Shown: positions 3,052-29,064 of the stretch, one piece after another
Position numbering within the stretch: position 1 is the stretch's first letter
Layout: each line of letters begins with the position of its first letter
DNA from: Myxococcota bacterium
Lineage (GTDB): Bacteria > Myxococcota_A > SURF-8
DNA length: 64,000 nt
Direction of reading: 5' to 3'
Assembly: GCA_965140415.1 (NCBI GenBank)
Contig: OZ223209.1
Coordinates: 2,048,001 to 2,112,000, forward strand
Made by a program: the position numbers and the translations under genes
The notes under the pieces: model-generated
Told to the model about the DNA's origin: nothing
Seen by the model: only the letters and a program-made list of their open reading frames with translations
Databases searched by the model: none

Positions 3052-4560
3052 TTATTGTACCACTTTCGCAACTAATGCATTTTCGTCTTTGTATACAATC
3101 TCGAACCCTTGGCCGGTATTGATCTGAGCTAACAGACCAGCGGCAGTTCCCGAGAACAGTTTTGAAATCACAACATAATGAGAATTGAATCTACTGACGA
3201 TGATGTGATTTGCGTTGGCGTTAGGTTTGCGTAACAGTAGAATGAAGTCTTTGTACAAATCTGCGTCGTAATAGGCCATTAGCGAATGGTTTGCACCTTC
3301 GGTGTAGCGGTATTCCGGTGCATAGTACAGCAGTTCGGAAAAGTCACCGCTGTAAACGTTAAAAATGACAGACCCCTTTTCCACGTTCGCCTTCAGGTAT
3401 TGGGTAACCCCTTTCATCCGTTCCGGGGTGAATGCGGCTTTCTGACGCAGATTGTATAGATCCGGAATCGTATGCATCGAGGCTGCGATCAAGGCTACAG
3501 CTAAAAGAGCCGCTCCCAGTGTATTACCCAATTTCTTACGAGCGGTTTCCTCGCTTAGCAGAAATCCTACTGCAAGTATCGGGAAAAGTCCGAAGTATTC
3601 AAAAAAGCGTACCGAGTGTACGGTTGCTGCGAAGTACAGCACGCAAAGTGCAAGCAAGTGCAAACTTTCCACTTTGGGTATTTTGCGATTGAGTAAATGC
3701 AGGCTCATGGCAATTCCCAATAGAATCAATGGGATAGTGCATTCTGTCAATACTCGGAAGATGCTTAATCCGTGCCATTCCGCAGGAGCGGCGACTCCAA
3801 CTGGGGAGTGGGATAAAAACAATGTATGACCCACCAGAAACGTGATTGAGTTGGGGAAGGTCGGGTTTAAAACCAGCGATACGGAAAAGCCGAGCACTGG
3901 TGCAAGCAGCAACGTAGACACCCACTTTCCCTCTCGTAGTCGAACGAGAAAAAAGTAAAGGAAAGCGATTGGAATTATTTGTAAAGAAGCATGATAAAGC
4001 CAGCCATAAATCAATGACACAATAAAAATCGGTACTTTTTTCCTTTGGTACAGCGTGTGTAAGAACAAAACGAGAAAGAATACGGATGCGGTGACCGGGC
4101 GAGGCATCAATAGGCGTTCAGCAAACGGCATGATCCCTAGAAATAGTAATAATAACAGCAATGTAGGGAAGCGTAATTTCATTTTGGCAAATAGAATGCC
4201 GACTGCCAAACAAACCAAGGCCAGCCATACCAATGTTGCAGTGGAAGTGGCAAGCAGTGGATCATCGATCAGCAGTGCAAAGGGAGAGAGGAGCAGATTG
4301 AACAGCAAGTGTTGATCGGCGAAATGCGTCGCCAGATCGGAAAATGGCAATGTCGGAAATTGCCGTATAAAACCATGCGTTGCGTAAAGCTTGGCCATGG
4401 CGAGATGGTAGTAGCCTAAGGGGTAATTCGTCGCATGCTTGGCTCCCAAGTACATCGCAGCAAGAATCAGTACAAGAATTGACACAGCAATAAAAGTAGC
4501 GATTTGCAGGGACTTTTGAGGTTTGGAATGAAGGGAGGAAACCTCTATTTGGTTAGCCAT
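3052..4560 (-). CDS. Polytopic membrane protein, GT-C-fold glycosyltransferase-like
   Basis: About 11-12 hydrophobic segments, N-terminal loop YYHLAMA...DQHLLF and a C-terminal soluble domain. Visibly AT-richer than the flanks. Confidence 0.55.
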   Translation of the reverse strand: MANQIEVSSLHSKPQKSLQIATFIAVSILVLILAAMYLGAKHATNYPLGYYHLAMAKLYATHGFIRQFPTLPFSDLATHFADQHLLFNLLLSPFALLIDDPLLATSTATLVWLALVCLAVGILFAKMKLRFPTLLLLLLFLGIMPFAERLLMPRPVTASVFFLVLFLHTLYQRKKVPIFIVSLIYGWLYHASLQIIPIAFLYFFLVRLREGKWVSTLLLAPVLGFSVSLVLNPTFPNSITFLVGHTLFLSHSPVGVAAPAEWHGLSIFRVLTECTIPLILLGIAMSLHLLNRKIPKVESLHLLALCVLYFAATVHSVRFFEYFGLFPILAVGFLLSEETARKKLGNTLGAALLAVALIAASMHTIPDLYNLRQKAAFTPERMKGVTQYLKANVEKGSVIFNVYSGDFSELLYYAPEYRYTEGANHSLMAYYDADLYKDFILLLRKPNANANHIIVSRFNSHYVVISKLFSGTAAGLLAQINTGQGFEIVYKDENALVAKVVQ

Positions 4561-6289: not shown

Positions 6290-6631
6290 ATGAAAATGAT
6301 TGTTGCCATCATTCAGCCGGATATGCTGAACCAGGTTAGAGAAGAACTGGTTAAAGCGGAGATTACAAGGATTACCGTCAGTCGCGTAGCCGGGCGAGGC
6401 CGAGCGACGGAAACCTATTTGTATCGCGGTCAGGAAGTTCCTCCGACGCTTCATCCGAAAATCCGGTTGGAGATTGCCTGTAATGACGAATTCGTCGATA
6501 TCACCGTAGATACCATCCTCAAGGTGGCTCGTCACGGAGATGGAACTACGGGCGATGGAAAGATCTTTATCCTGCCCTTGGAAGAATGTATCCGCATCAG
6601 TACGGGGACACGTGGAGGAAAGGCGATTTAG
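6290..6631 (+). CDS. glnK: P-II nitrogen regulatory protein
   Basis: MKMIVAIIQP, YRG T-loop and GDGKIFI. Directly downstream of amt. Confidence 0.93.
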   Translation: MKMIVAIIQPDMLNQVREELVKAEITRITVSRVAGRGRATETYLYRGQEVPPTLHPKIRLEIACNDEFVDITVDTILKVARHGDGTTGDGKIFILPLEECIRISTGTRGGKAI

Positions 6632-6643
6632 AAATCGAATCTG

Positions 6644-7570
6644 CTAGGATTCATCGAGCTTGCGGTTTCGATTGAACGCGGCGCGGGGCAGTGGTTGAAT
6701 GACTGTCGGTTCGCTGGTGTAAGGCTGGAATTCTTCGCCGCCATATAACATGTAATAGCGCGTCCAATGACCGTCGCAGCGATCCTGAAACACACAGTGC
6801 TCGCAGGCGTCGGCATGGGCTTTATCCGGATGTTTTGTGTATGTATACTGTTGCTGAATGGTCATATATTTATCGGCGCAGTCTTCATAACCTTTCAAAA
6901 AGCAGATCGGAATACCGCAGATGTCCGGTACACGACCAGTAACGCCAAGCTTGCGACACTCATCCAGTGCCGCATGTAGCTCCGCTTGAAAGTCCGTGAT
7001 TTTTGGAATCAGAGCCGGTGTCTGCCAGGCACGGTAGTAGGGATTGATCACGCTGAACACTAATTCCACTTTCGAGCCGAACAGGCGATGCATCACCCGC
7101 ACATATTCGGACATATGTCGCATATTCGGTGTGCAGATCACGTAGTTCAGCGTAACGGAAACACCTTGGTCCAGTAGGTTGCGGATGCCTTTCAATGTTA
7201 GTCGAAATCCACCGGGACGGCGGGTCAGATAGTCGCTTAGAGCTTCAGTGGCTGCGTGCAGCGACACAAAGCAGTCCGTCAGTCCAGCGTTTACCAATGA
7301 TGCCGTAAAGTCGGGATCGGCAAAGCGCATGGCGTTGGACTGGATACTGGCGCGGCGTTGTTTTTGCCGGATATAGTCGAGCAGTTTCGGTAGCATCGGC
7401 GATAGCGTCGGCTCGCCACCGGATATCTCGATTGCTTCATCCGAGGCGACGTTATCCAGAATGTGTTGAATGTCCGACCATTTGGAAGTGAGATCCTGAG
7501 TGTTTTTCGGATCGGCACCGCAGAACAGGCAATTCTGGTTGCAGTGTTTTTCGATCCGAAGCAGTGTCAT
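6644..7570 (-). CDS. Radical SAM enzyme with auxiliary Fe-S (partial SPASM-like) motif, third gene of the cluster
   Basis: CNQNCLFC, SGGEPTL, IPIC and CEHCVFQDRCDG. Start MTLL follows RBS GAGGAG, 1 nt after the upstream stop. Confidence 0.9.
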   Translation of the reverse strand: MTLLRIEKHCNQNCLFCGADPKNTQDLTSKWSDIQHILDNVASDEAIEISGGEPTLSPMLPKLLDYIRQKQRRASIQSNAMRFADPDFTASLVNAGLTDCFVSLHAATEALSDYLTRRPGGFRLTLKGIRNLLDQGVSVTLNYVICTPNMRHMSEYVRVMHRLFGSKVELVFSVINPYYRAWQTPALIPKITDFQAELHAALDECRKLGVTGRVPDICGIPICFLKGYEDCADKYMTIQQQYTYTKHPDKAHADACEHCVFQDRCDGHWTRYYMLYGGEEFQPYTSEPTVIQPLPRAAFNRNRKLDES

Positions 7571-7571
7571 C

Positions 7572-8606
7572 CTATTTCTCCTCGGTGATGGCGGAAAATT
7601 CCGATTCGCCATAGATTTCGAGGTAGTTGGACCAGACGCCGCCGCAGATTGGCAGCCACAGACAGGATTTGCAGGCGGTTGTCAGGCTTTTAAGCTCCTC
7701 TTTTTTCAGATCCTGCCAGATAAAGCGCTGCGTACCTTCCTCATCGGTCAAACGGTCGGTGGGATTGCCGAAGGAGGAGACGAAGGTTCGAATGTCCGTG
7801 TATTCGCCGATATAGCGGTGGCGCTTGTCCAGATCGTTGAAAAAGTCGGGTGGGAACGCACAATAGGGAATTTCACCAAAGGTTAAACGAATCTTGAACT
7901 CTCGTTCATTCAGATCGATCAGATCCAGAATCTGAGGGATGGCCTCATGGTAGCGGGGAACCAAGTCCTGTTTGTCTTTCGCTCGTCCTTCCGGACGGAT
8001 GTAGTTGAAACGGATATCGCTGATTCCGAGTTGCCTGAAAAAACGCACGAAACGCGGCAAGGTCGGCAGATTCTTTTGATTCAGCACGGCATTGATGCTG
8101 ATTACCGTTTTGCATACGCCATCTTTGCGCAGGCGTATCAGATTGCGGATGGCGCGAAGCTTGCGGATAAACGCGCCTTTACTGTTGGACAGGTAATCCT
8201 CTATCGAAGGAACTTCCGAATGGATGGACAGGCAATAGCGGTTCACGCCCAATTCCGCCGCTCGCTTGGCGAATTCCCAATCTCCCAATCGATACCCGTT
8301 GGTGTTCAATGTGATATCGTTAAATCCCAAGTCGCGAGCGGTTTCGAGCGTTTCGGTGAACCAGGGATACAGCGTCGGTTCGCCGCCCAATAAGCCCAGG
8401 CTATGCAGGCCGTGTTCCTGCGCGTAAAAACGCAACTCCCCTTTCAGTTTCTCCAAAGGAACCCAGCGTCGTTGCGCAGCCGAGGAATTGCTTTGCATGC
8501 AAAACAGGCATTTGTGATTGCAGGCATGACCCAGGTTGATGTCCACCCGTTCGCCACCGCCCTGTTTTGAAGAGAGCGGAATGTCCATGTTGCGCGGCTT
8601 GTCCAC
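7572..8606 (-). CDS. Radical SAM enzyme with auxiliary Fe-S motif, second gene of the cluster
   Basis: CNHKCLFC, LGGEPTL, TNG, IPYC and CKSCLWLPICGG. GTG start after RBS GAGGGGAG. Confidence 0.9.
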   Translation of the reverse strand: MDKPRNMDIPLSSKQGGGERVDINLGHACNHKCLFCMQSNSSAAQRRWVPLEKLKGELRFYAQEHGLHSLGLLGGEPTLYPWFTETLETARDLGFNDITLNTNGYRLGDWEFAKRAAELGVNRYCLSIHSEVPSIEDYLSNSKGAFIRKLRAIRNLIRLRKDGVCKTVISINAVLNQKNLPTLPRFVRFFRQLGISDIRFNYIRPEGRAKDKQDLVPRYHEAIPQILDLIDLNEREFKIRLTFGEIPYCAFPPDFFNDLDKRHRYIGEYTDIRTFVSSFGNPTDRLTDEEGTQRFIWQDLKKEELKSLTTACKSCLWLPICGGVWSNYLEIYGESEFSAITEEK

Positions 8607-8608
8607 GA

Positions 8609-9658
8609 TCAGCGCTCCCCTCGTTCTAAAATTGTCGGATCTTGTAGAAGAGATACGCCTTCTACCAGGGTGCCGCTTACCGGGACAAATTCCCGCGTTC
8701 CGCGCCGCCTGACGTATTCGGTATGTACTCCCTCGCAAATATCGCGATAGCGACAGCGAGTGCAACTTGCAGGCTTGATTTTGTAATGTCCCTTGGTGAT
8801 AAGGTTCTGAGGTTGTTTGCGGCTGGAGTTGGTTGCCACGAACTTGTTGACTTCACGCTCAACGGCACTTTCGCTCCAATACAACTCATCCATATATCGT
8901 TCTATGCCCTTTAAACGGCACAGCGGAACGTGTCCGATTGTAATTGGGATTTCCGGTTGTGCAAGTTTCAGCGCCTCACGCAAGGGCGCGTCCAACTGCT
9001 TATAGGTTGGCACCAGATTTTCGAAATGATCGTAAGCGCCGCCGATGGGACGCACGAAGGCCCAGAACAGGCGCTGTGCGCCGGAATCCAGTTGATGGCG
9101 CATCATATCGGGCAGTCGTTGCACGTTGCCGTTGTAAATTACGCTGCTAAGCGAAAACGGCATATTCTGCACTTTCAGGTTCTCCATCGCCAGGCAAACT
9201 TGATCGAAAGCTCCCGGCGATTGTACCGCCGCATCGTGCGTTTCGGCGTCGTGTCCGTGTAGGGACAGATAAAGCCGTGTGATGCCCGCAAGTTGCAAGG
9301 TGCGTGCGAACTTCTCATGGCGCAGCATGCGCCCGTTTGTGGTGAGCATAATGGTTTGGAATCCCAAGCGTTTCGCTTGAGCCACCAAGGTCGGAAAGTC
9401 CTTTCGAATCGTCGGTTCACCGCCCAGAAAAGTCAGATGTTGGAAGCCGCGCCCATACAGATCCTTCAGTGTTTTTAGCAGGAATTCGGTCGTTAAGGTT
9501 TCATGGACCTGTTTTGAAATATTCTGTTCACGGTTGCAGATTTCGGAGCAGAACACACACCGGTTGTTGCAGGCGTAACCTAAATTGATTTCCACCCGTT
9601 TTTGCTTGGGGTGCAGCAGCAAACTGTCGCTGACGTGTTCCGGGTTCTGTGTGGCCAT
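8609..9658 (-). CDS. Radical SAM enzyme with auxiliary Fe-S motif, first gene of the cluster
   Basis: CNNRCVFC, LGGEPT, TTNG, VPLC and CTRCRYRDICEG. Confidence 0.9.
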   Translation of the reverse strand: MATQNPEHVSDSLLLHPKQKRVEINLGYACNNRCVFCSEICNREQNISKQVHETLTTEFLLKTLKDLYGRGFQHLTFLGGEPTIRKDFPTLVAQAKRLGFQTIMLTTNGRMLRHEKFARTLQLAGITRLYLSLHGHDAETHDAAVQSPGAFDQVCLAMENLKVQNMPFSLSSVIYNGNVQRLPDMMRHQLDSGAQRLFWAFVRPIGGAYDHFENLVPTYKQLDAPLREALKLAQPEIPITIGHVPLCRLKGIERYMDELYWSESAVEREVNKFVATNSSRKQPQNLITKGHYKIKPASCTRCRYRDICEGVHTEYVRRRGTREFVPVSGTLVEGVSLLQDPTILERGER

Positions 9659-9702
9659 CGAATATCCGACTACCTTTGCAAGGACTCGTTACTCATGTTC
9701 CG

Positions 9703-9731
9703 ATCATGGAACCCGGATGGGGAAAAGTCAA
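9703..9731 (-). promoter_or_regulatory. sigma70-like promoter of the radical SAM operon
   Basis: Minus strand TTGACT (9731-9726), 17 bp spacer, CATGAT (9708-9703). Confidence 0.6.
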
Positions 9732-9778: not shown

Positions 9779-11965
9779 TCACTGGGAATCGCTACGTTGG
9801 TAGATGCCATCCAGCAAATCCAGCATTTCAGCCGGGCTGTTGGTGGGTAGTTGACAGGCTTGATTGACACACACATAGGCCGTTGCCTGTCTGTTACGCT
9901 CCGTATGGTCTTTTGTAAAGGTAGCGTAACTGCTTATTCCAGGTAGGCTTTCCGTGCTGGGACGGAATAAGACCACTTTGTTCGGAAGAAACGTCTTTCG
10001 GAGAGCATGAAACATTTTCCCGACATCTTCTTTTCCTGGTTTGCCTACTATTACAACTTCCGCCGACGGTCCCAGGCCGAAATCCACCGAAAGCAGCAGC
10101 CGGGTGTATTCGAAGGGGGCGCGCTGCACACTGGTGGAAAATGAGCGCCACAGCATATCCGCACGCATGATATAACCCAGATCGCCGGTAATGCGACCCA
10201 GGCGCAGCAAATTCATAGCGGCGACTGAATTGGCGGAAGGTACGGCACCATCGTAAATTTCCTTTTGGCGCGTAATCAACTGCTCGCCGGATTCATCGTA
10301 AGAGTAAAACCCGCCGGAAACCTGATCCCAGAAACGTTCAATGAAATCATCCATGTATTCGTTAGCCAAGTGAAGATACTGGATGTTGAAGGTCGCTTCA
10401 TACAGATCCAGCATGGCGGCAATCGTGAAGGCGTAATCGTCGGCGAATGCGGCGATGGCTGCCTCGCCGTCCCGATAACGGTGCAGCAAACGTCCGGCAT
10501 CGTCGGTCAGGCGATGATGTAGAAATGACGCCGCCCGCTCTGCGGCTTTCACATACCGATCATTTTCGAATACGCTGCCGGCCAGAGCCAATGCGGAAAT
10601 CATTAGCGCGTTCCAGTCGGTCAGGATTTTGTCGTCGAGATGAGGCCGCACACGTTCGTTGCGGGCCTGGAAAAGTTTTTCTCTAATGGGCTCCCACTTT
10701 TCCCTGATCTGACTGATCTGCCAAGCAGAAAGGGTATCGTTTTGTGTTAGCAATTCCGAACGATTCAGGATGTTCAACCCAGTAGCCTGTCCGCTGGCTT
10801 CCTCTTCGAAGTTACCTTCGCTTTTGACGCCATATTCCTTGTGGAGAAATTCCATTTCCAGAGGAGTAAGCAACTCTTTCAATTCCGCTTCGCTCCAGAC
10901 GTAAAACTTGCCCTCTACTCCTTCGCTGTCGGCGTCTTCAGCGGAATAGAAACCGCCATTGGGTGCTTGCAAATCACGCAGCACATAGCTGAGGATCTCA
11001 TTGGCAACCTGCTTGAACAGATCGTCTCCGGTGGCTTGGTAGGCTTTGGTGTATAGGCTTGCCAGCTGCGCCTGATCGTAGAGCATTTTCTCGAAATGCG
11101 GCACCAGCCACTGACGGTCGGTGCTGTAACGATGGAAGCCGAAGCCGACGTGATCGAACATTCCCCCGGCATACATGGCTTTCAGACTTTTCTTGACGAT
11201 GTCCAGCGGCATCGATTCGCCCGAACGTTTCCAATAATTCAGCAAGAATTCCAATTTATGCGGAGTGGGAAACTTGGGTTGGCTACCAAAACCGCCCCAT
11301 TGCCGATCTACCATGCCCAACAGGCGCGTATAGGCGGCATCCAGTACGCTTCGATCTATGGCAGGACCGGGAGCATCCTGGACCATTTCCTCAAGTGCGG
11401 TCTGTACCTGCTGGGCGGATTGCAGCAGTTTTTCGCGGTGGGTTCCCCACAATTCACCGACTTTGTTGATTAAATCCATCATTCCCAGTCTTCCGGCCTG
11501 GGTCTGCTTCGGAAAATAGGTGCCGGAAAAGAACGGTTGTTTATCGGGTGTCATGATAATCGTCAGCGGCCAGCCGCCGTTACCGTTCATCATTTGACAG
11601 ACCGTCATATACACTTGGTCGATGTCCGGGCGTTCTTCCCGGTCCACCTTGATGGAAATGAAAGCCCGATTCAGCGCCTCGGCCACTTCCGGATCTTCAA
11701 AGGATTCATGCTCCATTACGTGGCACCAGTGGCAAGTCGAGTAACCGATGGAAAGAAAGATGGGCTTGTCCTGTTCTTGCGCCCTGTTAAAAGCCTCGTC
11801 ACCCCAGGGATGCCAATCCACCGGGTTATAGGCATGTTGCAGTAAATACGGGCTTTTCTCGTTTATCAAACGGTTGGGTTGGCCAGATGCAATGGCTCCC
11901 GGACTCGAAGTTGTCTGACTTTGTTGTTGTTCTTGCCCTGCCATGACTACGACTCCGATCGTCAA
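9779..11965 (-). CDS. Thioredoxin-domain protein, YyaL/SPATA20 family
   Basis: [42 protein letters not shown] and DDKILTDWN. Start uncertain. Confidence 0.93.
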
Positions 11966-12228
11966 TGCAACCCATAACAGGTTGCTTGAAATTGAAAATA
12001 GCGTCTTCTAAGCCTTGTCTTAAAGCTGTGATGGTAACGGTGCATCACTTGGTGGCTACGTCGATTTCATGACGCTTGCAAGGCTTGTAGGTGGGACTTG
12101 AACGGAAAGGGCTTTATTCCCATCGAATCGGATGCGAGGAATTTTGCAAACAGGCGCAACCCTGCGATATCCGCGGTGAATTGCCGGGAAAGGAGAGGAT
12201 AAGGCACATTGGTGATGTGAAACGGTGC

Positions 12229-12897
12229 TTATTTTTCCAGGCCAACGAGCTTTTTGAACTCATCCAGGCCGATTTCTTCTATCCATTTTCCGATTCTGCG
12301 GGATGGTCCCTGTTCTTCGAAGACGGAGATCACTTTGTCGGTCAGTTCTAACGCCTGCTCGTCGCTGAGTTGATCTGCCAGCGGTTGTGCAATGCGGGGA
12401 ATCAGACCGCCGTTGCCGCCCACAGCGGCCTTCCAGCCTTTCGGTGTACCGTACAGTGCGAAATCCTTGATGGCGTTTTCCGCACACTGCATGTGGCAGC
12501 CGGAAACTCCGATTTTGAACTTGAACGGAAGTTTCTTGCCGTGGAAACGTTTGTCCAACTCCATTCCGATTGCATATGCGTTTTGCTTGGCATAGGTGCA
12601 GTAAGGCGTTCCGGGGCAGAATTTGACACTGCGAATGCAAGCCCCGATGGCCTGGCCCGGTTCGACTCCGACATCCTGCCAGAATTCACCCAGGCGTTCT
12701 TCATCGATACCGATGAACATGAAGCGCTCGGCGCTGGTCATTTTAATGGCGTCTACCTGGTACTTTTCCGCGATATCCGCGTACTTACGAAGTTCTTGCG
12801 GAGTCACGAAGCCACCCGGCGCATGCGGGGCGACGGCATAGCGTCCGTTTTTCTGCACGACGGCCACCTGTTCGGCTATTCGAAGTTTTTTTTCCAC
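12229..12897 (-). CDS. Stand-alone nitrite/sulfite reductase-like (NIR/SIR half-domain plus 4Fe-4S) protein
   Basis: PGGFVTPQEL...KMTSAER, RSVKFCPGTPYC and KFKIGVSGCHMQCAE motifs. Confidence 0.8.
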   Translation of the reverse strand: MEKKLRIAEQVAVVQKNGRYAVAPHAPGGFVTPQELRKYADIAEKYQVDAIKMTSAERFMFIGIDEERLGEFWQDVGVEPGQAIGACIRSVKFCPGTPYCTYAKQNAYAIGMELDKRFHGKKLPFKFKIGVSGCHMQCAENAIKDFALYGTPKGWKAAVGGNGGLIPRIAQPLADQLSDEQALELTDKVISVFEEQGPSRRIGKWIEEIGLDEFKKLVGLEK

Positions 12898-12971
12898 CGG
12901 CCACACCTCGTTGTTGTGATCCTGTTGACCGGAAGTATAGCATTCTTCCCCCCTGGGTACAAGCTCACCGA

Positions 12972-13058
12972 TCAGTCCGGAATGCAGCTTTCTCCTTGCG
13001 GGACGTAACCGCTGTTACAGCCGAATCCGCATTCACCCTCGGTGCAGATGCCAGCAAC
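12972..13058 (-). pseudogene. Orphan Cys-rich coding fragment (VAGICTEGECGFGCNSGYVPQGESCIPD*)
   Basis: C-x4-C-x3-C-x2-GY-x6-C spacing typical of Cys-rich extracellular repeats. No plausible start codon or RBS. Confidence 0.35.
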
Positions 13059-13128
13059 AAAATAAGATATGCTTTTACATCGGAAATTGTTTTGAAGAGT
13101 TAAGCGAATATGAAAAACGTTGTATCTT

Positions 13129-13617
13129 TCAGTATCTTTCGTCGCGCATCTGTCGGCTGACATCGCGCTGCTTGATGTCCTCGCGGCGGTCGAAAAGTTT
13201 TTTACCCTTGGCCAAGCCGATTTCCACCTTGGCGAGGCCATGCTTGAAGTAGATGGATAAAGCCACGATGGTGTAACCACGTTCTTTGACTTTTACGGAT
13301 AAGCGATGAATTTCGCGGGCGTGCATCAGCAATTTGCGTGGGCGCAGCGGATTATGGTTGTAACGATTGCCCATTTCGTATTCGGCGATGTGGCAGTTTT
13401 CAAGCCAGAGTTCACCATTCTTGATGCGCCCGAATGCATCGACCAGCGAAGCCTGCCCCGCGCGCAGCGATTTGACTTCGGTGCCGGTGAGTACGATCCC
13501 TGCCTCGAATGTATCTGAAATATGGTACATAAAGCGCGCTTTGCGATTGCGCGCAACGACTTTGTGACCTTCTGCGGTTACGCCGCCGTTTTTCTTTTTC
13601 TTGTTCTTTCCTGCCAC
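13129..13617 (-). CDS. smpB: SsrA-binding protein
   Basis: NRKARFMY, EAGIVLTGTEVKSLR, RKLLMH and GKKLFDRRE. GTG start after GGAGG. Confidence 0.98.
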   Translation of the reverse strand: MAGKNKKKKNGGVTAEGHKVVARNRKARFMYHISDTFEAGIVLTGTEVKSLRAGQASLVDAFGRIKNGELWLENCHIAEYEMGNRYNHNPLRPRKLLMHAREIHRLSVKVKERGYTIVALSIYFKHGLAKVEIGLAKGKKLFDRREDIKQRDVSRQMRDERY

Positions 13618-13690
13618 GATCACGCCTCCTGCGGCCATCTTAGCTGTAGAACGAATGCGATGCCATGTTTTTTTCCGTTATAGCAAAAGC

Positions 13691-16651
13691 TTAGGATTTG
13701 GCGGTTTTCGATTTGGCTACCGTGGTTTTCTTTTTCCGTTTTGCAGCAGTGGGTTTAGTGGCTGTGCGCTTGGGTGTTTGTTTGTGGCTTTTCTGTGACC
13801 CGGTTTGTGTCTTTCCTGTTTTGGAAGATCCACTGTTTCCGAGTTTGGCTTTCAGAAAGCGTCCCGTATGTGAGTTCGAACTCGTTGCGATTTCTTCCGG
13901 CGTGCCAGTGGCAACGATTGTGCCGCCTTTATCGCCACCCTCCGGTCCCAGATCGATAATATAATCCGCCGTTTTGATGACATCGAGGTTATGCTCGATG
14001 ACAATGACCGTATTGCCGCTTTCTGTCAGGCGGTTCAGTACGTCGAGCAGTTTGTTGATATCGTCGAAATGCAGGCCAGTGGTCGGCTCGTCCAGAATAT
14101 ACAGCGTGCGCCCCGTAGAGCGCTTTGAAAGCTCACGAGACAACTTGATGCGCTGCGCTTCGCCCCCGCTTAACGTCGTTGCCGGTTGACCCAGTCCGAT
14201 ATATCCCAGTCCGACTTGCTGTAACGTTTTCAGCTTATTATTGATCGAAGGGATGTTTTCGAAGAATGCTGTGGCCTGATTGACGGTCATCTTGAGGATG
14301 TCGCTGATGTTTTTCCCTTTGTAGCGGATTTCCAGGGTTTCCCGGTTGTAACGCTGGCCGCCGCACTGTTCGCATTGCACATAGACATCCGGCAGGAAAT
14401 GCATTTCGATGCGATTGACGCCCGCGCCTTCGCAGGATTCGCAGCGTCCGCCTTTGACGTTGAAGGAAAAACGTCCGGCCTTGTAGCCGCGAGCCTTGGC
14501 TTCCGGTAATTGCGCCAGCAAATCGCGAATCGGAGCAAACACCTGGGTATACGTGGCCGGATTGCTGCGCGGCGTGCGCCCGATCGGAGATTGATCGATG
14601 GCCACGACTTTGTCGATGTGCCGTAAACCGCTTACCTTTTTGCAGTTGACCGGCTTACGGTTGCGACGCGCACGCAAACTCAGACTTGGAAGCAGGGTAT
14701 CGATCACCAGGGACGATTTACCGGAACCGGAAACTCCGGTGACGAGGATCAACGATCCAAGCGGGAAGGAAACATCCAGGTTTTTCAAATTGTTTGTATT
14801 GCAACCGGAAAGTGTCAGCTGCTTTTCCGACTTCGAACGACGTTTGACCGGAACCGGAATGCTACGTTTTCCGCTTAAGTATTGACCGGTCAAGCTTTTC
14901 GAATTTGCCAGAATCTGTTTGGGCGTTCCCTGGGCGACGACTTCGCCTCCGTGGATTCCAGCGCCCGGTCCCATATCCACCACATGATCCGCGCTTAGGA
15001 TGGTGTCTTCGTCATGCTCTACGACGATGACCGTATTGCCGATGTCGCGCAGGCGTTTCAAGGTGGCCAATAGCCGGTCGTTGTCGCGCTGATGCAGACC
15101 GATGCTCGGTTCATCGAGAATATACAGTACGCCAACCAGCGAACTGCCGATCTGGGTTGCGAGTCGGATGCGCTGGCCTTCTCCGCCGGAGAGCGTAGCC
15201 GAACTGCGATCCAGAGAGAGATAATCGAGACCGACGTTGTTCAGGAAACCGAGTCGCTCCCGGATTTCCTTGAGCAGCCGCCCGGCGATGAATTCATCCC
15301 GCTCCGAAAGCGTCAAGGTGCTGAAGAAGTCAAGGCATTGCTCGATGGTCAGCCGTGTCAACTCGATGATATTTTTATTTTCCACGCGAACGTGTAAGGC
15401 TTCCGGACGCAAGCGGTTGCCGTTGCAGGTGGGACAGAGCGTATAGCTCATGTAACGTTCCAGTTCTTCGCGTACCTGCTCGCTCTGCGTTTCACGGTAG
15501 CGTCGCTCCAGGTTGGGAATAACTCCCTCGAAGGGACGATGATAACTGTGATGCTGCTCGGCGCCGTTGAAATCGAAATGAATGCTCTTGTTTCCCGAGC
15601 CGTACAGAAGGACTTGCTGGACCTTTGCGGGAAGTTTGGCGAAAGGCGTCTCGACCGACGCTTTATAGGCGTTTGCCACCGATTCGAGCATGAAATAGTA
15701 ATAAAAACCGGTGCGTGAGTTCCAGGGCATCACCGCGCCTTCACGCAAGGACAGGCTTTCGTCGGGGACGACCAGTTCGCGGTCGAAGTACATCTTCATA
15801 CCCAGGCCGTGACAGTCGGGGCAGGCTCCGTGGGGGTTGTTGAAGCTGAACAGGCGTGGCGAGATTTCCGGGTAGCTGATGCCGCAATCCACACAGCCGA
15901 AATGCTCGGAGAAGGTGTAGCTTTCTCCTTCCGTGGTTTCGATCAGAGCTAGCCCGTCGGCCAGTTTCAACGCCAACTCCATGCTTTCCGTCAGTCGATT
16001 GGCGATGCCTTCGCGCAGCACCAGTCGATCCACAAGGACTTCGATGGTGTGCTTGAGTTTGCGATTCAGTTCCGGTTCCGTTTCAGACAGATCGATCATT
16101 TGACCGTCAACCCGCACGCGGATATGACCGTCGCGCCGGAACTGTTCGAATTCCTTGCGGTATTCGCCTTTACGACCTCGAACGACCGGCGCAATGACGA
16201 GAAAGCGGGTGCCCTCCGGCATTTTCAGGATCTGATCGACCATCTGCTGCACGCTTTGCTTGCTGATGGCTTTGCCGCAGCTGTAGCAGTAGGGCTGCCC
16301 GATGCGCGCGTAAAGCAAACGGAAATGATCGTAGATTTCGGTTACGGTGGCGACGGTGGAACGCGGGTTCTTACTGGCCGTTTTCTGCTCGATGGAAATC
16401 GCCGGGGAAAGACCCTCGATGGCGTCTACATCCGGTTTGTTCATCTGTTCGAGAAACTGGCGGGCGTAGGCGGAAAGCGATTCCACGTAGCGTCGCTGTC
16501 CTTCCGCGTAAAGCGTATCGAAGGCGAGGGAGGATTTACCCGATCCGCTCAGTCCGGTAATGACGACGAGTTCGTTTCTGGGCAGACTGACGTGGATGTC
16601 TTTCAGATTGTGTTCTCGGGCACCCTGGATAATGATGTTTTTCTCGGTCAT
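13691..16651 (-). CDS. uvrA: Excinuclease ABC subunit A
   Basis: GAREHNLK, two GxSGSGKSS Walker A motifs, LSGGE signatures and zinc fingers. Confidence 0.99.
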
Positions 16652-16693
16652 GAAAGGCTGCCGTTTCCGTATGTCGCGTGATAAGGATGTGCG

Positions 16694-17719
16694 CTAACTC
16701 GATTGGGATTGTTGTTTAATGCGGTCTGCGGCAAAAGCCGCCGCCTGGATGATGGCGGAAAACAGGCTTTTTTCCGAGGCATAGCCTTTGCCAGCGATAT
16801 CGTAAGCGGTGCCATGATTGGGAGAGGTGCGGATAATCGGCAATCCCAAAGTGATGGTTACGCCGAAGGAGTTATCGATCAGACGATGGGCGATGGCTCC
16901 CTGATCATGATACATGATGATGACGGCATCGAATTCTTCATCCCGTGCACGTAAAAACGCATGTTCGACCGGCAAGGGGCCGGTAACGCGCATTCCCTGG
17001 TTTCTTGCTTCTGTTACCGCTGGCATGATGTGTTCGGTTTCTTCCATGCCGAACAATCCGTTCTCGCTGGCATGAGGATTCAGACCGACGACCGCCAGGC
17101 GTGGGCGTTTGATTTTGAAAGATGTTTCCAATGCCTTGTACGTCAAGGCAATGGCGTTGTATACACGTTCTTTGCAGATCAGGTTCGGCACTTCACGAAT
17201 GGGGACATGACTCGTCACACGGGCGACGCGCAAGTGATCGCTGGCGATTAGGGTGGCGCTGTGCTTTGTTTTGGTAATCGATTTCAGCAGATCCGTATGA
17301 CTGTGATGATCATACCCGGCTTCGTGCAGCATGGCTTTGTTGATCGGACAGGTCACCAAGGCATCTACCTGATTGGAGACGGTCATCTCCGCTGCTTTAA
17401 CGATATAAAAGGTGCTGACCAGTCCCAGATCGGTGCGCGGCTGGCCATATTCGAACTGATCCAGATTGATGTTCGAGAGTGGAATGAGGTTCGCCGTTTT
17501 GTCTTGGGCCTGATCGGGCGATTGGATCGGATTGAAAATCACCGAGCCGCCCATTTCGCGCTGAACTTTACGCAATACCCCTTCATCGCCTAAAACGATT
17601 GGTGTGCAGTGCTCGTAAATATCGGGACGGGATAAACTGCGGATAATAATTTCCGGGCCGATCCCGGCAGGGTCGCCCATGGTGATTGCCAGCTTTGGAT
17701 GCCGCATTTCCGCTGTCAT
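16694..17719 (-). CDS. pdxA: 4-hydroxythreonine-4-phosphate dehydrogenase family protein with divergent active site
   Basis: ITMGDPAGIGPE, LNPHA, MYHDQG and RTSPNHGTAYDIAG. Lies after surA as usual. Confidence 0.88.
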   Translation of the reverse strand: MTAEMRHPKLAITMGDPAGIGPEIIIRSLSRPDIYEHCTPIVLGDEGVLRKVQREMGGSVIFNPIQSPDQAQDKTANLIPLSNINLDQFEYGQPRTDLGLVSTFYIVKAAEMTVSNQVDALVTCPINKAMLHEAGYDHHSHTDLLKSITKTKHSATLIASDHLRVARVTSHVPIREVPNLICKERVYNAIALTYKALETSFKIKRPRLAVVGLNPHASENGLFGMEETEHIMPAVTEARNQGMRVTGPLPVEHAFLRARDEEFDAVIIMYHDQGAIAHRLIDNSFGVTITLGLPIIRTSPNHGTAYDIAGKGYASEKSLFSAIIQAAAFAADRIKQQSQSS

Positions 17720-18744
17720 TATTGATTCTCCTGCCCGGATTCTTCCAGATCCAGGATAGCCTGCTTGGGGGGCTGATTCATTTTAATATCGATGAAGGCT
17801 TTCGAGCGTAACTGCTGTACCCAGGTTTTCATTTCTCGCTTCATCGCTTCTTCGCGAAGGCGAGCGCTGATTTCCGCTCTTGCTTCTTCGTACCCTTTGG
17901 GGGGAACCGGGCGTTTATCTGCCAGTTGAATGACGTGGAATCCGAATGGACTTTTAACCACTGGAGAAACTTCGTTGACACTCAACTTCAAGACCGCGTT
18001 TTCAAAGGCTTTTACCATGACACCTTTTCGGAAGTATCCCAGATCGCCTCCGAAACGCGCCGTCGGCCCTTCCGACAGTTCCCTGGCCAGCGCTTCGAAA
18101 TCTTCACCTGAACGATATCGGGCGAGGGCATCTTCGGCGCGTTGGCGTTGTGCCTGCTCCACTTCCGCCGTGTCGGATTTCAACAGGCGAAACAGGATGT
18201 GGCGGGCGCGGTATTCATATTCCTGCGCTGCGGAAATGTTTTCCTTTTCGTAGGCGGTTTTAACTTCCGCTTCGGAAATCTTTACGCGGTTTCCGACCTT
18301 GGCATTGATGAAGTTCCATTTACGTAATTGCTTGCCGATTTGCTTTCGATACTCGGTCCATTCGATGCCTTGCTGGAACAGCGCTTTCTTCAGTGTTTCC
18401 TTGTCCGGAATGTTGTTCTGTGCCATGACTCGTTCGATGGCGGCATCCACTTCTTTTTCATCGACATCGAATTTGAGTTCTTTCAACTGTTGCTCAAGCA
18501 GCATGTCTTCGATCAGTTGATCCAGCACTTTCGTGTAAATCTCGTTCTTTTTCGTGGTGAGTTGCTCAGGATCGCGGATGCCGACCAGCATACTCTGGTA
18601 GCTTTGGGCCTGTTCCTTGACTTCCGAAAGCAGAATGATTTCGTCGTTTACGACGGCTGCAATCCGTTCCACAACTTCAGCTCTGGCTATGGGAGACAGT
18701 AATAGCAGGCATGCCAGCAGCAGACCGATCATGTTTCGTCTCAT
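17719..18744 (-). CDS. surA: SurA-like chaperone / parvulin peptidyl-prolyl isomerase
   Basis: Signal peptide, VERIAAVVNDEII, ARHIL, GGDLGYF and SPFGFHVI. Confidence 0.85.
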   Translation of the reverse strand: MRRNMIGLLLACLLLLSPIARAEVVERIAAVVNDEIILLSEVKEQAQSYQSMLVGIRDPEQLTTKKNEIYTKVLDQLIEDMLLEQQLKELKFDVDEKEVDAAIERVMAQNNIPDKETLKKALFQQGIEWTEYRKQIGKQLRKWNFINAKVGNRVKISEAEVKTAYEKENISAAQEYEYRARHILFRLLKSDTAEVEQAQRQRAEDALARYRSGEDFEALARELSEGPTARFGGDLGYFRKGVMVKAFENAVLKLSVNEVSPVVKSPFGFHVIQLADKRPVPPKGYEEARAEISARLREEAMKREMKTWVQQLRSKAFIDIKMNQPPKQAILDLEESGQENQ

Positions 18745-19682
18745 GGGGAGACCCTCGTTTTCTCGGCGAAGCCGGGGTTAAGTTCCACCGGAAAACGTCG
18801 CCGTAACGTTTTCATCAGCGTTTCTTCCGCTTCGGTCTTCTTTTCTTCGAATAACTCTTTTTCAAGGTCCATGCGTACCTGTTCGAAAGTCAGTTGACGA
18901 GCAGGCAAATGGTCCGTGATCATGAAGATATGATAACCGAAATCGCTTTTAATGGGTTTATTCGGCGTTCGCCTAGGCAGATCGAAAACCAAATGGAATG
19001 GATCGGGTAGTTTTCCACGATGGACCCAGCCCAGATCGCCACCTAATTCCTTTTCCGGTGTGATGGACAATTCCTGTGCGAGATCCTCGAAGGCTTCTCC
19101 CCTGAACAGGCGGCGACGTACTTGTGTGGCTTCTTCTTCTGTTGCTACCACAATTTGTTTTACGCGCACCATTTCCGGTTGAGCATAACGCTCCGGTTGC
19201 TTGTCGAAAGCGGCCTTTGCTTCCTGTTCCTTGACCAGGATTCGCGAATAGATCTCCTCGCGAAACAGTCGTTGAATGGTGGCCTGTTCGGCGGTCCGTT
19301 TGATCAGGTCGTTGACGCTCATCTGAACCTTGTCCGCAGCGGTTTGCAGATCCGCTTCCAAAGCGGAGCCAAACAGGTCTCGAAGGCGCTCATCCAAGGC
19401 ATCTTGTGGAAGCACGACCTGACGACGTTTGGCTTCTTGAAGCAGCAATTTACGGGAGATCAAATCTTCAAGCGCCGACTGTTGCATAGCCAAAAAGGCT
19501 TCGCTTCCGATATCCGGAATGAATTCATCTCCTGCCAGTAGCCGGACTTCATCGAAAACTTCGCCTTCCGTAATCGTTTCGTCTCCCACGCGAGCAAGCC
19601 AAGGAACCTCGTTGCTGGCTTCCTGGTTGGTGCAACCGAGCAGAATCCCCGCGAGTAGCATTGTCAGTATTAATGCGCGCAC
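18741..19682 (-). CDS. Parvulin-type PPIase lipoprotein
   Basis: Lipobox LLGC, VRVKQIVV, GGDLGWV and SDFGYHIF. Confidence 0.88.
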   Translation of the reverse strand: MRALILTMLLAGILLGCTNQEASNEVPWLARVGDETITEGEVFDEVRLLAGDEFIPDIGSEAFLAMQQSALEDLISRKLLLQEAKRRQVVLPQDALDERLRDLFGSALEADLQTAADKVQMSVNDLIKRTAEQATIQRLFREEIYSRILVKEQEAKAAFDKQPERYAQPEMVRVKQIVVATEEEATQVRRRLFRGEAFEDLAQELSITPEKELGGDLGWVHRGKLPDPFHLVFDLPRRTPNKPIKSDFGYHIFMITDHLPARQLTFEQVRMDLEKELFEEKKTEAEETLMKTLRRRFPVELNPGFAEKTRVSP

Positions 19683-19766
19683 GCCTCGTCCGCTCCTGTG
19701 GTTGGCCCGCTTACTAAGACAGGCGCTTGTGTTCTGGGTCGCAACGCGTGTTGCGGTGCATCTGAT

Positions 19767-20843
19767 TTACTTCGGTTCCGTCGGCTTCGAGTCGTTCTTT
19801 TCATCTTTGCTGCGGGGACGAGTGTTTTCTTTGCTGATACCGTTTTTAGGAACATCGTCAGGACCGGCACCCGGCACCGAGTATTGATTGAGCAGTTGCT
19901 CGTTGATGTTGATTGCGGCGCCTTTTTGCAGCTTCGCCACGAAATTGTCCATCATATCGGTGCGGCGCTGCTTGTACAGGCGATGCTGAATCTGACCTTT
20001 GACCTGTTCGAAATCGCGCTGAATGGCATCGCGTTTGCCGGTCAGGCGCAAGACGTGATAACCCAATTTCGTTTTCACCGGACCTGCGATGTCGTTGATC
20101 TGCTTCATCTTGAAAACCGCATCGGAAAGCGCTTTCTCCAGCGGTCCGCCATCGGTTGTAGAAGCGAAATATCCCAGATCTCCACCACGGTTTTTGTTGG
20201 CGTCGTCGTCACTGTTCTTTTTGGCCAGTTTACGGAAGGCGTTGGGGTCTTTCTTGGCAGCCTTGGCTTCTTTTACCAGTTTCTTCGCTTTTTTCAGAGC
20301 TGCTTTCCGCTCTTTGTCCGTGGCATCTTCCCCAACTTTGATAAGAATGTGGCTGGCGCGCCGCATAGCCGGTTTGTTGTACTGGTCCTGGTGTTCCTGG
20401 TAATATTTCTTAAGTTCTTCGTCGGTGATATCCTCGCGCTTGACCTTGTTTTCCAGTTCATCGCGCATCAGTTTCTGTGTCATGACTTGCTTCGCCGAAC
20501 GTAACACTTCGGGATCTTTGTCGTATCCCTGTTTTTGTGCTTGCTGCACGATCAACTCGAAGCGGATCATGTTATCCAGGAATTCCTTCTTTTTTTCCAG
20601 CGTGTTGTAGCGTGCGCGGATATACGGCGATTGCTTTTCCATGCGCTCGGTGAATTCGTCCATGTAGATCTTGTAGCCGTTGATTTCGGCCAGAACGTCG
20701 CCTTTGCCCTCGGCTTGCAGCCAATCGGAGGAGGGGGTGGAAGATGTTGCGGTTGAGGAACCGGAATTCTTGTCGCAGCAGCCGAAAACGAGCAAGCCCA
20801 GCCCAAGCACGATCATATTCAAGAATAGGATTGTCCTTGTCAT
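19767..20843 (-). CDS. Parvulin-type PPIase lipoprotein (PrsA-like)
   Basis: Lipobox VFGC, RASHILIK, GGDLGYF and TKLGYHVL. Start after GGAGG. Confidence 0.9.
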   Translation of the reverse strand: MTRTILFLNMIVLGLGLLVFGCCDKNSGSSTATSSTPSSDWLQAEGKGDVLAEINGYKIYMDEFTERMEKQSPYIRARYNTLEKKKEFLDNMIRFELIVQQAQKQGYDKDPEVLRSAKQVMTQKLMRDELENKVKREDITDEELKKYYQEHQDQYNKPAMRRASHILIKVGEDATDKERKAALKKAKKLVKEAKAAKKDPNAFRKLAKKNSDDDANKNRGGDLGYFASTTDGGPLEKALSDAVFKMKQINDIAGPVKTKLGYHVLRLTGKRDAIQRDFEQVKGQIQHRLYKQRRTDMMDNFVAKLQKGAAININEQLLNQYSVPGAGPDDVPKNGISKENTRPRSKDEKNDSKPTEPK

Positions 20844-20883
20844 TTTACTAACCTCCAAGATAAAAAATCTTTAACAGTTCCGA

Positions 20884-27063: not shown

Positions 27064-27294
27064 GTTCTGCTCTCCTTGTTTAGACCTATGAAAACATCAA
27101 AAAGGGCTGCATTCTACGGCGGTGCTCGGTACATGTCAATTGAAAGCAACAGTGGAGGAAATTCTTTTGAATATACTCTAAGTTTTGGAAAAAACTTGGG
27201 AATTAGGTTCGTTTTGGGCCTGTATTCATGGGGGGGATCTGGAGCCTGTTCCCGCAGAGCCGCATATTTTCAAGCAGAGATCGTTTTTTTTTGC

Positions 27295-27323
27295 TTGACT
27301 CTTCCTTATAAGGTGACTATAAA
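27295..27323 (+). promoter_or_regulatory. sigma70-like promoter of the HU gene
   Basis: TTGACT-17 bp-TATAAA. Confidence 0.7.
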
Positions 27324-27378
27324 TATAGTGAAATTATTCCGGCAAGTGTTTTATCAACGTCCCAGAGGGAGAGGAAAA

Positions 27379-27858
27379 ATGGCAGAGAAAAAAGCCAAGA
27401 AGGCACCGGCGAAAAAAGCTCCGGCCAAGAAAGCAGCTGCGAAGAAAGCCCCGGCCAAGAAAGCTCCGGCCAAGAAAGCTGTAGCGAAGAAAGCCCCGGC
27501 GAAGAAAGCTCCGGCCAAGAAGGCTCCGGCCAAGAAAGCCCCGGTCAAGAAGGCCCCCAAGGCGTTCAAAGCTAAGGCCGTCTCCACAAAGGCTGCTTTG
27601 CTTGAACAGCTCAAAGACAGTGTCGGTGCTGAACTGTCTGCAAAGGCGACTGCGGAAATCGTTGAGAACCTGTTCTCGATCATCTCGCTTTCCATCAAGA
27701 AGAATGCTCGTTTCACGATTCCGGGTTTCGGAACGTTCAACGTCAAAAAACGGAAAGCTCGCACGGGCCGCAATCCTCGCACTGGCGACAAGATCAAGAT
27801 CAAAGCCAGCAAGACCGTCGGCTTCAAGCCCACCCCGAAATTCAAGGACATGCTGTAA
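27379..27858 (+). CDS. hup: HU-family nucleoid protein with N-terminal histone H1-like AKKAP repeats
   Basis: IPGFGTF...[12 protein letters not shown]...[10 protein letters not shown] core. ATG follows RBS GAGG. Confidence 0.93.
27394..27558 (+). repeat. 11 imperfect 15-bp tandem repeats encoding AKKAP
   Basis: Units such as gccaagaaagctccg, counted from the translation. Confidence 0.9.
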
Positions 27859-27983: not shown

Positions 27984-29027
27984 TCAGGCCAGTTGAATCG
28001 CCTGATTTCCCGGTGGGTGAACTTCTCCGATAATACGAGCGTTCGTGAGCCCATTGTTTTGTAAAGCTGTAAGAAGATCGCTGGCGATTCCTGAAGGCGC
28101 AGACATCAGCAACCCCCCGGAGGTTTGCGGGTCCAGCGCCAGCCACTTGCGGTTGGCGGTGAGAGAGGGCAGGAAGGCGACCCTCTCGCGGACGAAATCG
28201 AGGTTTCGCATGCAGCCGCCGGGGATTACTCCCTGATCGATCAGATCCAGCGCGCCAGGTAAAACAGGGAGATCGCGGGATTCAATTCGGAAACTGACCC
28301 CGCTGGCATTGGCGAAGCGATAAGCATGACCCAATAATCCGAAGCCGGTAACGTCGGTAGCTCCTTTGATGTCGAATTCGTTCATCCGTTCCGCTCCCGA
28401 GCGATTGAGCAGGCACATGGATTCCACTGCCGGACGGACTTCCTCTTCCGTAATCAGATCGACTTTCCTCGCTCCGGTTAAAATAGAGGTGCCTAGCGGT
28501 TTCGTCAGAATGAGTTTGTCACCGGGGTTTGCGCCACTATTGGTAACAAGCCTGTCAGGGTCGACAAGGCCGCTTACCGCCAATCCGAATTTGATCGGGT
28601 GATCGTCGATGGTGTGTCCGCCTAAGATATAAGCATCCGATTCCGCAACCTTGTCTGCCGCTCCTTTGAGCATGGAAACCAGTACATCCGACGGGAAATG
28701 CTGCGACGGAAACATGACCAGCGACAGGGCGCAGATGGGACGGCCTCCCATCGCATAGACATCCGAAAGGGCATTGGCTGCCGCAACCTGTCCGAAGTCA
28801 TAGGGATAATCCACCATCGGCGGAAAGAAGTCGGTTGTTTGCACGAGATATTCACCGCTGGGAAGTCGCAGGATGCCGGCGTCGTCGTGCGTACTTGCTC
28901 CCACAATGATATTCGGATGGCTGGGCAGGGGTACTTCGCGCAGGATCTCTTCCAACGCTTTAGGACTCAACTTGGCGGAGCAGCCACCGGCTTCCACGGT
29001 TTGAGCAAGTCGAATTACATCGTTCAT
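27984..29027 (-). CDS. selD: Selenide, water dikinase (Cys form)
   Basis: GGCSAK, DDAG, QTTDFFPP, AANALSDVYAMGG, GGHTI, TDVTGFGLLGH and DPQTSGGLL. Confidence 0.97.
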   Translation of the reverse strand: MNDVIRLAQTVEAGGCSAKLSPKALEEILREVPLPSHPNIIVGASTHDDAGILRLPSGEYLVQTTDFFPPMVDYPYDFGQVAAANALSDVYAMGGRPICALSLVMFPSQHFPSDVLVSMLKGAADKVAESDAYILGGHTIDDHPIKFGLAVSGLVDPDRLVTNSGANPGDKLILTKPLGTSILTGARKVDLITEEEVRPAVESMCLLNRSGAERMNEFDIKGATDVTGFGLLGHAYRFANASGVSFRIESRDLPVLPGALDLIDQGVIPGGCMRNLDFVRERVAFLPSLTANRKWLALDPQTSGGLLMSAPSGIASDLLTALQNNGLTNARIIGEVHPPGNQAIQLA

Positions 29028-29064
29028 CGTTTCTGCCTCGATAAAAGCTACGATTTGAAAACAG

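Follow-up and report, generated by a model that had tools for sequence, protein, structure and literature searches.

What do three paralogous radical S-adenosylmethionine (SAM) enzymes do when they are encoded side by side with no conventional substrate gene? The question is raised by a locus in a 64,000 nucleotide (nt) stretch of DNA, called the window here, from a Myxococcota bacterium (GenBank assembly GCA_965140415.1, contig OZ223209.1, positions 2,048,001 to 2,112,000). The three genes, designated A, B and C in the direction of transcription, were described in a first-pass annotation as a self-contained operon that may constitute an uncharacterized modification pathway. Judged by their sequences, A, B and C are an uncharacterized branch of the HxsC family, within its accessory, HxsC4-like part. 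The explanation we favor, with little more than even confidence, is that the trio is a multi-enzyme HXS-type maturase set for a protein encoded elsewhere, likely acting with a distal HxsB.

Open reading frame (ORF) calls bore out the description of three consecutive minus strand genes separated by 1–2 nt. The stop codon of A (TGA) is followed after 2 nt by the GTG start of B, and the stop codon of B (TAG) is followed after 1 nt by the ATG of C. All three ORFs are intact. GAGGGGAG precedes the B start codon at 8606. If translation began instead at the next ATG (8588), 18 nt further in, the gap would be 20 nt. GAGGAG precedes the C start codon at 7570, and an alternative upstream ATG at 7612 would overlap B.

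All three proteins matched the Pfam family PF04055 (Radical_SAM), whose gathering threshold is 29.5 bits, with 71.9, 74.9 and 53.2 bits for A, B and C, respectively (E = 9.4e-20, 1.1e-20 and 5e-14). Pairwise identity within the trio is 27–33% (A vs. B 33%, A vs. C 27%). Since all three match the same family at E values of 5e-14 to 1e-20, their paralogy is not a chance resemblance. The best NCBIfam model for each protein was HxsC4 (NF038332), at 169.5, 133.5 and 104 bits against a curated cut-off of 500, and the alignment was nearly full length for A (10–335) and B (13–334) of 335. HxsC (TIGR03977) scored 91.7, 63.5 and 93.2 bits against a cut-off of 267.9, ranking second for A and C and third for B. 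Together with hallmark residues common to core HxsC-like proteins, these ranks bear out the HxsC-type resemblance proposed in the first-pass annotation. Models for MoaA, PqqE, NirJ and AhbD gave at most 87 bits against cut-offs of 231–515, the viperin model NF038283 gave 34–55 bits against a cut-off of 180, and many peptide maturase models also scored lower. With every score far below the NCBIfam cut-offs, none of the three proteins falls into a characterized family. Prokaryotic viperin (pVip) was considered as an identity and discarded, the PADLOC matches being weak (41–58 bits) and restricted to the radical SAM core.

The radical SAM motif reads CNNRCVFC in A, CNHKCLFC in B and CNQNCLFC in C. 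GGEPT and a Y...G-x2-EF tail occur in all three proteins, as does the C-terminal C-x2-C-x5-C-x-G motif (CTRCRYRDICEG in A, CKSCLWLPICGG in B and CEHCVFQDRCDG in C). The first-pass description of these shared motifs stood in all but one element, the internal P-x-C. It is P-L-C in A and P-Y-C in B; in the alignment the corresponding site of C is P-D-I-C, and P-I-C follows three residues on. Seven Cys residues, three of the radical SAM motif and four others, are invariant in 20/20 A-type, 15/15 B-type and 14/14 C-type sequences. A, B, C and seven core HxsC-like proteins have 21 invariant residues in common, among them every one of the seven Cys, GGEP and the Y..G..EF tail. We use "HxsC family" in a broad sense, a grouping defined in the present analysis by the 3+4 Cys, GGEP, N108, D142, P245, Y315, G320, E323 and F324 (A numbering), all of which the trio possesses. 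It is a reasonable inference from the conserved residues that the four extra Cys of each enzyme would hold one auxiliary 4Fe-4S cluster. The Pfam SPASM family (PF13186) had no match in A, B or C.

Solved structures offered parallels to the radical SAM core. An A-type profile matched only this core, in BlsE (the best match), PqqE, GDGT-MAS, SkfB and MoaA. An AlphaFold2 model of A (predicted local distance difference test score 83.7, predicted template modeling (TM) score 0.83) was compared with the PDB using Foldseek, and the best matches were SkfB, BlsE, GDGT-MAS, viperins and MoaA, with TM scores of ∼0.5 over ∼230 columns. The C-terminal Cys-rich part of the model had no good structural match in the PDB. 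SkfB (6efn) and BlsE (7vob) are the closest solved structures (Foldseek E = 7.6e-12 and 5.3e-11) and share the partial TIM-barrel radical SAM core, but only the core aligns, at 21–24% identity, and their substrates, the sporulation killing factor peptide and cytosylglucuronate, are unrelated. SPASM/twitch maturases such as PqqE, anSME and SuiB resemble the trio in having extra C-terminal Cys, where an auxiliary cluster could sit, and the trio matches many such models weakly. They differ in that full SPASM domains have seven or eight extra Cys rather than four, and an RRE-like N-terminal domain was not detected in the trio. Matches in the ESM Atlas were confined to unnamed radical SAM clusters from Elusimicrobiota and Myxococcota. 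A complex prediction for B and C (alignments A3 and A4) returned a score of 0.00, which counts neither for nor against binding.

In a collection of 5.8 billion proteins 83 homologs of A were detectable, few of them named. A genome scan yielded 74 loci, and the ORFs called in them were compared with A, B and C. Three Myxococcota genomes (loci L001, L002 and L003) keep the order A-B-C, and every window gene has an ortholog of its own there; the trio is thus co-conserved in other genomes. At these three loci C is a 593–608 amino acid (aa) protein of two domains, C plus a fourth radical SAM type designated D. The window C protein is the counterpart of the first half, and the D domain is absent from the window. 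Other arrangements were A-B (L006), A alone (L004, L005 and L009), and a 540-aa family member followed by an A-type and then a C-type gene (L007 and L014).

Phylogenetic trees were built with FastTree from all 247 family domains, and with IQ-TREE from 62 domains of at least 250 aa, drawn from the window and 16 loci, the other 185 domains being left out. Both trees group each window protein with its own orthologs. A orthologs are up to 57% identical and form an IQ-TREE clade of 10 rows (Shimodaira-Hasegawa-like approximate likelihood ratio test support 99). B orthologs, from L001, L002, L003 and L006, are up to 64% identical (6 rows, support 100), and C orthologs are up to 51% identical (4 rows, support 99). 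These separate clades indicate that the paralogy of A, B and C is ancient. In the IQ-TREE phylogeny the C clade is nested in a 15-row clade (support 96) with paralogs from Candidate Phyla Radiation (CPR) bacteria and DPANN archaea.

At E≤1e-8, not one of 11 neighboring proteins from the window had a homolog anywhere in the 74 loci. Because the trio alone is conserved and no neighbor recurs, the term "self-contained" is apt. A 502-aa membrane protein gene (3052–4560) and a DUF255 thioredoxin-domain gene (9779–11965) were each tried as conserved partners and ruled out on this ground. The former, on the minus strand, encodes a polytopic protein that had no Pfam or PADLOC match and no match to the PMT_2 family associated with the paralog arrays described below.

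HXS was originally defined by bioinformatics, in work of Haft and Basu referred to in a passage of PMC9062424. Excerpts of PMC13128918 report that E. coli HXS was shown in 2026 to be an antiphage system. Maturation of HxsA needs both HxsB and HxsC and comprises processing at the N terminus along with a +8 Da change that is site-specific, on an SHRSS motif; HxsC also binds HxsD (excerpts of PMC13128918). By the same excerpts, 99.7% of HXS systems are in Pseudomonadota, and an adjacent HxsD-HxsB-HxsC-HxsA array is found in 99.6% of systems. HxsC is like the trio proteins in being a radical SAM protein of ∼300 aa with CxxxCxxC, GGEPT, P-x-C, C-x2-C-x5-C and a Y..G..EF tail, and relatives of A and C adjoin genes for HxsB, HxsD-like and His-Xaa-Ser repeat proteins. 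The trio differs from HxsC in comprising three diverged copies rather than one, in having no adjacent HxsD-HxsB-HxsC-HxsA array, and in its host, which is not one of the Pseudomonadota.

The link between the relatives of the trio and HXS emerged from the 74 loci, which come mostly from DPANN archaea and CPR bacteria. Two or more family domains were found in 54/74 loci, three or more in 40/74 and five or more in 22/74, with a maximum of 11 (L021). The 445 ORFs within 3 kb of a family gene were clustered and the cluster representatives scanned. Recurring most widely was a 471-aa radical SAM/SPASM protein, found in 33 loci, followed by a membrane protein weakly matching Peptidase_A24 in 27 and DUF483 in 20. 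A B12-binding radical SAM protein recurred in 15 loci, a PMT_2 glycosyltransferase in 13 and an HxsD-like protein (40 bits, cut-off 50) in 10, and a His-Xaa-Ser (HxS) repeat protein (HxsA4 at 89 bits, cut-off 55) in 9 loci by cluster. The 471-aa protein is HxsB; one cluster representative and two other HxsB-like proteins, from L014 and L005, scored 416, 544 and 540 bits, respectively, against the TIGR03978 cut-off of 370. HxS runs of at least five repeats occur in 18/74 loci.

At two loci an A-type gene, in one of them together with a C-type gene, lies with HXS components. At L014 the 540-aa family protein, the A-type gene and the C-type gene are followed by genes for the A24-like membrane protein, an HxsD-like protein, HxsB and three HxS-repeat proteins. 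This locus is without a core HxsC, its only family members being the 540-aa, A-type and C-type proteins. At L005 a distance of ∼6 kb separates an A-type gene from HxsD-like and HxsB genes, and a gene for an 1858-aa Cys-rich secreted protein lies in between. The L005 region (9974–18882) runs A-type gene, 1858-aa protein with CDG-x-DNDCDG-type repeats, HxsD-like, HxsB, then ORFs resembling insertion sequences. In L004 (9962–18870) the A-type gene, the giant protein and HxsB recur, and an HxsD-like ORF was not detected. The giant Cys-rich proteins were rejected as HxS-repeat substrates, as they contain 3 (L005) and 2 (L004) HxS tripeptides against 1.5 and 1.7 expected.

When 49 paralogs from eight array loci were scanned, 0/49 reached a curated cut-off. 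Seven of the eight loci have one paralog each that is clearly closest to canonical HxsC (165–211 bits). Most of the others, like the window trio, best match HxsC4, at 94–185 bits. HxsC4 is described as a "rare" variant; it is the best model for the trio and for most accessory CPR/DPANN paralogs, and its cut-off is reached neither by the trio nor by these 49. A search of the full-text literature, with subscription journals outside its coverage, found no experimental work on HxsC4 and no paper on multi-paralog HxsC arrays, HxsC4 or HXS-type loci of CPR bacteria and DPANN archaea.

Several features of the arrays are recorded here as side observations. Arrays of 5–11 HxsC-family paralogs occur in CPR/DPANN loci L017, L021, L034, L036, L044, L046, L047, L052, L055, L057 and L074, of which L036 is from a complete Fermentimicrarchaeum genome. 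In most of them one or two HxsB genes and long HxS-repeat proteins (runs of up to ∼160 residues) lie alongside. In L046 (11190–13282), L055 (7531–9633), L057 (18228–20299) and L074 (13891–16033) the paralog closest to canonical HxsC is followed by a membrane protein of ∼385–440 aa. This protein has the weak Peptidase_A24 (prepilin peptidase) match and directly follows the HxsC-closest paralog in 4/4 mapped loci having one, and it is a candidate for the source of the unexplained N-terminal processing of HxsA. The arrays of L012 (7269–12767, labeled "archaeon") and L013 (317–5821, labeled "Campylobacterales") comprise the same five genes with nearly identical ORF lengths, and L057, labeled Pseudomonadales, groups with CPR paralogs in the tree. 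These labels point to binning errors or recent transfer.

Natural fusions join the paralog types in single proteins. An A-type profile searched against a library of 1.84 billion representative sequences gave 3274 matches at E≤1e-30, and among the matches listed 116/142 further representatives carry two or more family domains. The architectures include A-C-B (P0209 and P0210), A-A-C-B (P0207 and P0208), B-D, C-D, A-B and core HxsC-A. The earlier suggestion that the three copies act together gains support from the A-C-B and C-D fusions. Natural fusions, tight gene spacing and conserved gene order taken together support the view that the paralog types act as one unit.

No HXS partner is encoded near the trio. 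Six-frame translation of the 64-kb window contained no HxS run of three or more repeats, and no HxS protein, HxsB or HxsD is present in the 64 kb, in agreement with the first-pass statement that a His-Xaa-Ser precursor is lacking nearby. A search for HxsB beyond the window identified P0093, which is an HxsB (559 bits against the TIGR03978 cut-off of 370) with 61% identity to the L005 query. It is probably encoded in the same genome as the trio, outside the window. Among the matches listed HxsB also occurs on the L002 and L003 contigs (P0086 and P0089). The L005 HxsD query found two candidates in the protein collection, both close relatives of the query.

Under the explanation we favor, A, B and C would each carry a 4Fe-4S site that cleaves SAM, and probably a single auxiliary Fe-S cluster as well. 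As products of a single operon with tight coupling, they would work as a set, either as a complex or in successive steps. They would install radical-mediated covalent modifications on a substrate, presumably a protein, encoded elsewhere on the chromosome, and most likely would do so with an HxsB-type radical SAM/SPASM maturase encoded outside the window. Biologically, the set might serve against phages, as E. coli HXS does, or produce a polymer of the surface or periplasm. With respect to the proposed uncharacterized pathway, what held was that the trio consists of uncharacterized, co-conserved HxsC-like enzymes without a local substrate. It is probably not a free-standing new pathway, given the A- and C-type genes in the HXS-type locus L014, the A-type gene near HxsD-HxsB in L005, and the HxsB apparently encoded in the same genome.

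Several observations weigh against a maturase set of the HXS type. The scores of A, B and C are far below the HxsC4 and HxsC cut-offs, so that a shared function is extrapolated over a large distance, and the reaction of even canonical HxsC, the +8 Da change on SHRSS, is still undefined (excerpts of PMC13128918). A phmmer search of the window ORFs, for which every member of the 20 families most often co-located served as a query, found no HxsB, HxsA, HxsD, A24-like membrane protein or DUF483, and matched only an unrelated HemN-like gene and a GT2 glycosyltransferase gene. None of the five is encoded within 10 kb of the trio in L001–L003 either. HxsB is common in Myxococcota-type sequences (6501 matches at E≤1e-20), and for this reason its co-occurrence with the trio in three genomes is weak evidence. 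In the IQ-TREE subset no CPR or DPANN sequence falls in the B-type or the D-type clade, and the link of B to CPR paralogs in FastTree (support 91) is unstarred. Typing of the family domains relied on five small hidden Markov models and is crude and biased towards A. Finally, the window is ordinary core chromosome rather than a defense island, with genes for UvrA, SmpB, Mfd, PdxA, SurA-like proteins, SerS and GrpE-DnaK-DnaJ.

A rival explanation is that the trio is an independent pathway unrelated to HXS, with only ancestry in common with HxsC. Its target would be a peptide or protein other than an HxS one, or else a small molecule, for instance a sugar nucleotide, a lipid or a cofactor precursor. 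A self-contained operon with no conserved neighbor, the lack of HXS components in the window and in the 10-kb surroundings at L001–L003, and the low HxsC and HxsC4 scores all fit such a pathway. So does the restriction of the best structural matches to the core, since they include the non-peptide enzymes BlsE, GDGT-MAS, viperin and MoaA, and so do the glycosyltransferases (PMT_2 in 13 loci, and GT2) and B12-radical SAM genes (15) often found at related loci. We nevertheless regard it as doubtful, though a serious possibility: relatives of A and C lie inside a full HXS-type locus (L014) or near HxsD-HxsB (L005), the only consistent named partners of the family are HxsB, HxsA and HxsD, and an HxsB appears to be encoded in the same genome.

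Function and decay also had to be considered. An HXS-like antiphage defense split over two chromosomal sites, a special case of the maturase set, is suggested by the fact that the only characterized relative, E. coli HXS, is antiphage and needs HxsC (excerpts of PMC13128918), and by the probable presence of HxsB in the same genome. It is improbable in view of the housekeeping context, with no defense or mobile genes in the window, the GC content, which is the same as that of the surroundings, and the PADLOC result, which is limited to the weak generic pVip matches of 41–58 bits. Moreover, the huge paralog arrays of CPR bacteria and DPANN archaea, accompanied by long HxS-repeat proteins, are more suggestive of the making of a structural polymer. 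That the trio is instead the decaying remnant of a larger cluster, without current function after loss of the D domain and of its partners, would account for the absence here of the D domain of L001–L003 and for the end of C only 12 nt from a convergent gene. We consider this very unlikely: the ORFs are intact, every family-invariant residue and the translational coupling are kept, and branch lengths are similar to those of the orthologs.

The multi-enzyme maturase set may have a wider setting. Tentatively, the trio could be the minimal, chromosomally fixed form of a large, undescribed multi-enzyme machinery built of HxsC4-like radical SAM modules, in which every module type would add its own radical modification to a secreted protein, His/Ser-rich or otherwise. 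In CPR bacteria and DPANN archaea the modules are found as arrays of up to 11 paralogs or as fusions of 2–4 domains. If this is true, it would yield surface or periplasmic polymers that are heavily cross-linked and would reach far past the antiphage HXS of Pseudomonadota. The family of HxsC-like enzymes is much larger than the single-copy case of Pseudomonadota. It takes in distinct types of paralog conserved together as sets, proteins that fuse several domains and, in CPR bacteria and DPANN archaea, which are the smallest cells known, large arrays. Being compact and from a free-living bacterium, the three-gene set offers a tractable way into the enzyme chemistry and into the question whether several enzymes act on one substrate.

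The features of the locus are collected in the table. The trio converges on a P-II gene (6290–6631), which follows an ammonium transporter gene; the stop codons are 12 nt apart, as expected from the reported convergence on glnK. A TTGACT-17-CATGAT promoter-like site is present upstream of A, as the first-pass annotation had said, but that it is a dedicated promoter for the trio is unproven. Two such sites were found in the 4 kb scanned, compared with 2.8±1.7 in shuffled sequence, and because the count does not exceed that of the shuffles the match alone shows nothing. A scan also found no terminator-like site between A and the upstream same-strand gene (9779–11965). No small precursor-like ORF was found; in the gap of 120 nt upstream of A the only ORF is one of 29 aa that starts with GTG, and no similar small ORF was apparent upstream of A in L001, L002, L003 and L006, as judged by reading the listed ORFs rather than by alignment. 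Rfam detected 0 families at gathering score over the whole 64 kb, and thus no riboswitch, leader RNA, tRNA or rRNA.

Table. Positions in the window of the trio genes, their conserved cysteines and the upstream promoter-like site.
Feature	Position	Strand	Basis
Gene A, HxsC-family (HxsC4-like) radical SAM enzyme, 349 aa, ATG start	8609..9658	-	ORF
Gene B, HxsC-family radical SAM enzyme, 344 aa if the GTG at 8606 is the start	7572..8606	-	ORF and start context
Gene C, HxsC-family radical SAM enzyme, 308 aa, ATG at 7570	6644..7570	-	ORF
A CxxxCxxC motif, C30, C34, C37	9548..9571	-	Invariant in 20/20 A-type sequences
A four further Cys, C247, C299, C302, C308, candidate auxiliary Fe-S site	8735..8920	-	Invariant in alignments A1, A2 and A5
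B CxxxCxxC motif, C29, C33, C36	8499..8522	-	Sequence and B-type alignment
B further conserved Cys, C249, C312, C315, C321	7644..7862	-	Invariant in 15/15 sequences of alignment A3
C CxxxCxxC motif, C10, C14, C17	7520..7543	-	Sequence and C-type alignment
C further conserved Cys, C223, C256, C259, C265	6776..6904	-	Invariant in 14/14 sequences of alignment A4
Promoter-like TTGACT-17-CATGAT upstream of A	9703..9731	-	Consensus scan, 9/12 positions match

Elsewhere in the window, four further features were noted. UvrA (13691–16651) has a Lys-rich C-terminal tail. Three consecutive SurA/PpiC-type peptidyl-prolyl isomerase paralogs (17719–20858, minus strand) lie downstream of mfd and upstream of pdxA. 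An HU-type DNA-binding protein (27076–27855, plus strand) has a long histone H1-like (HC2) Lys/Ala-rich N-terminal extension. An AIR-synthase-related (SelD-like) gene adjoins that of a 200-aa TusA-domain protein (27987–29667, minus strand), and the two may be a selenium or sulfur transfer pair.

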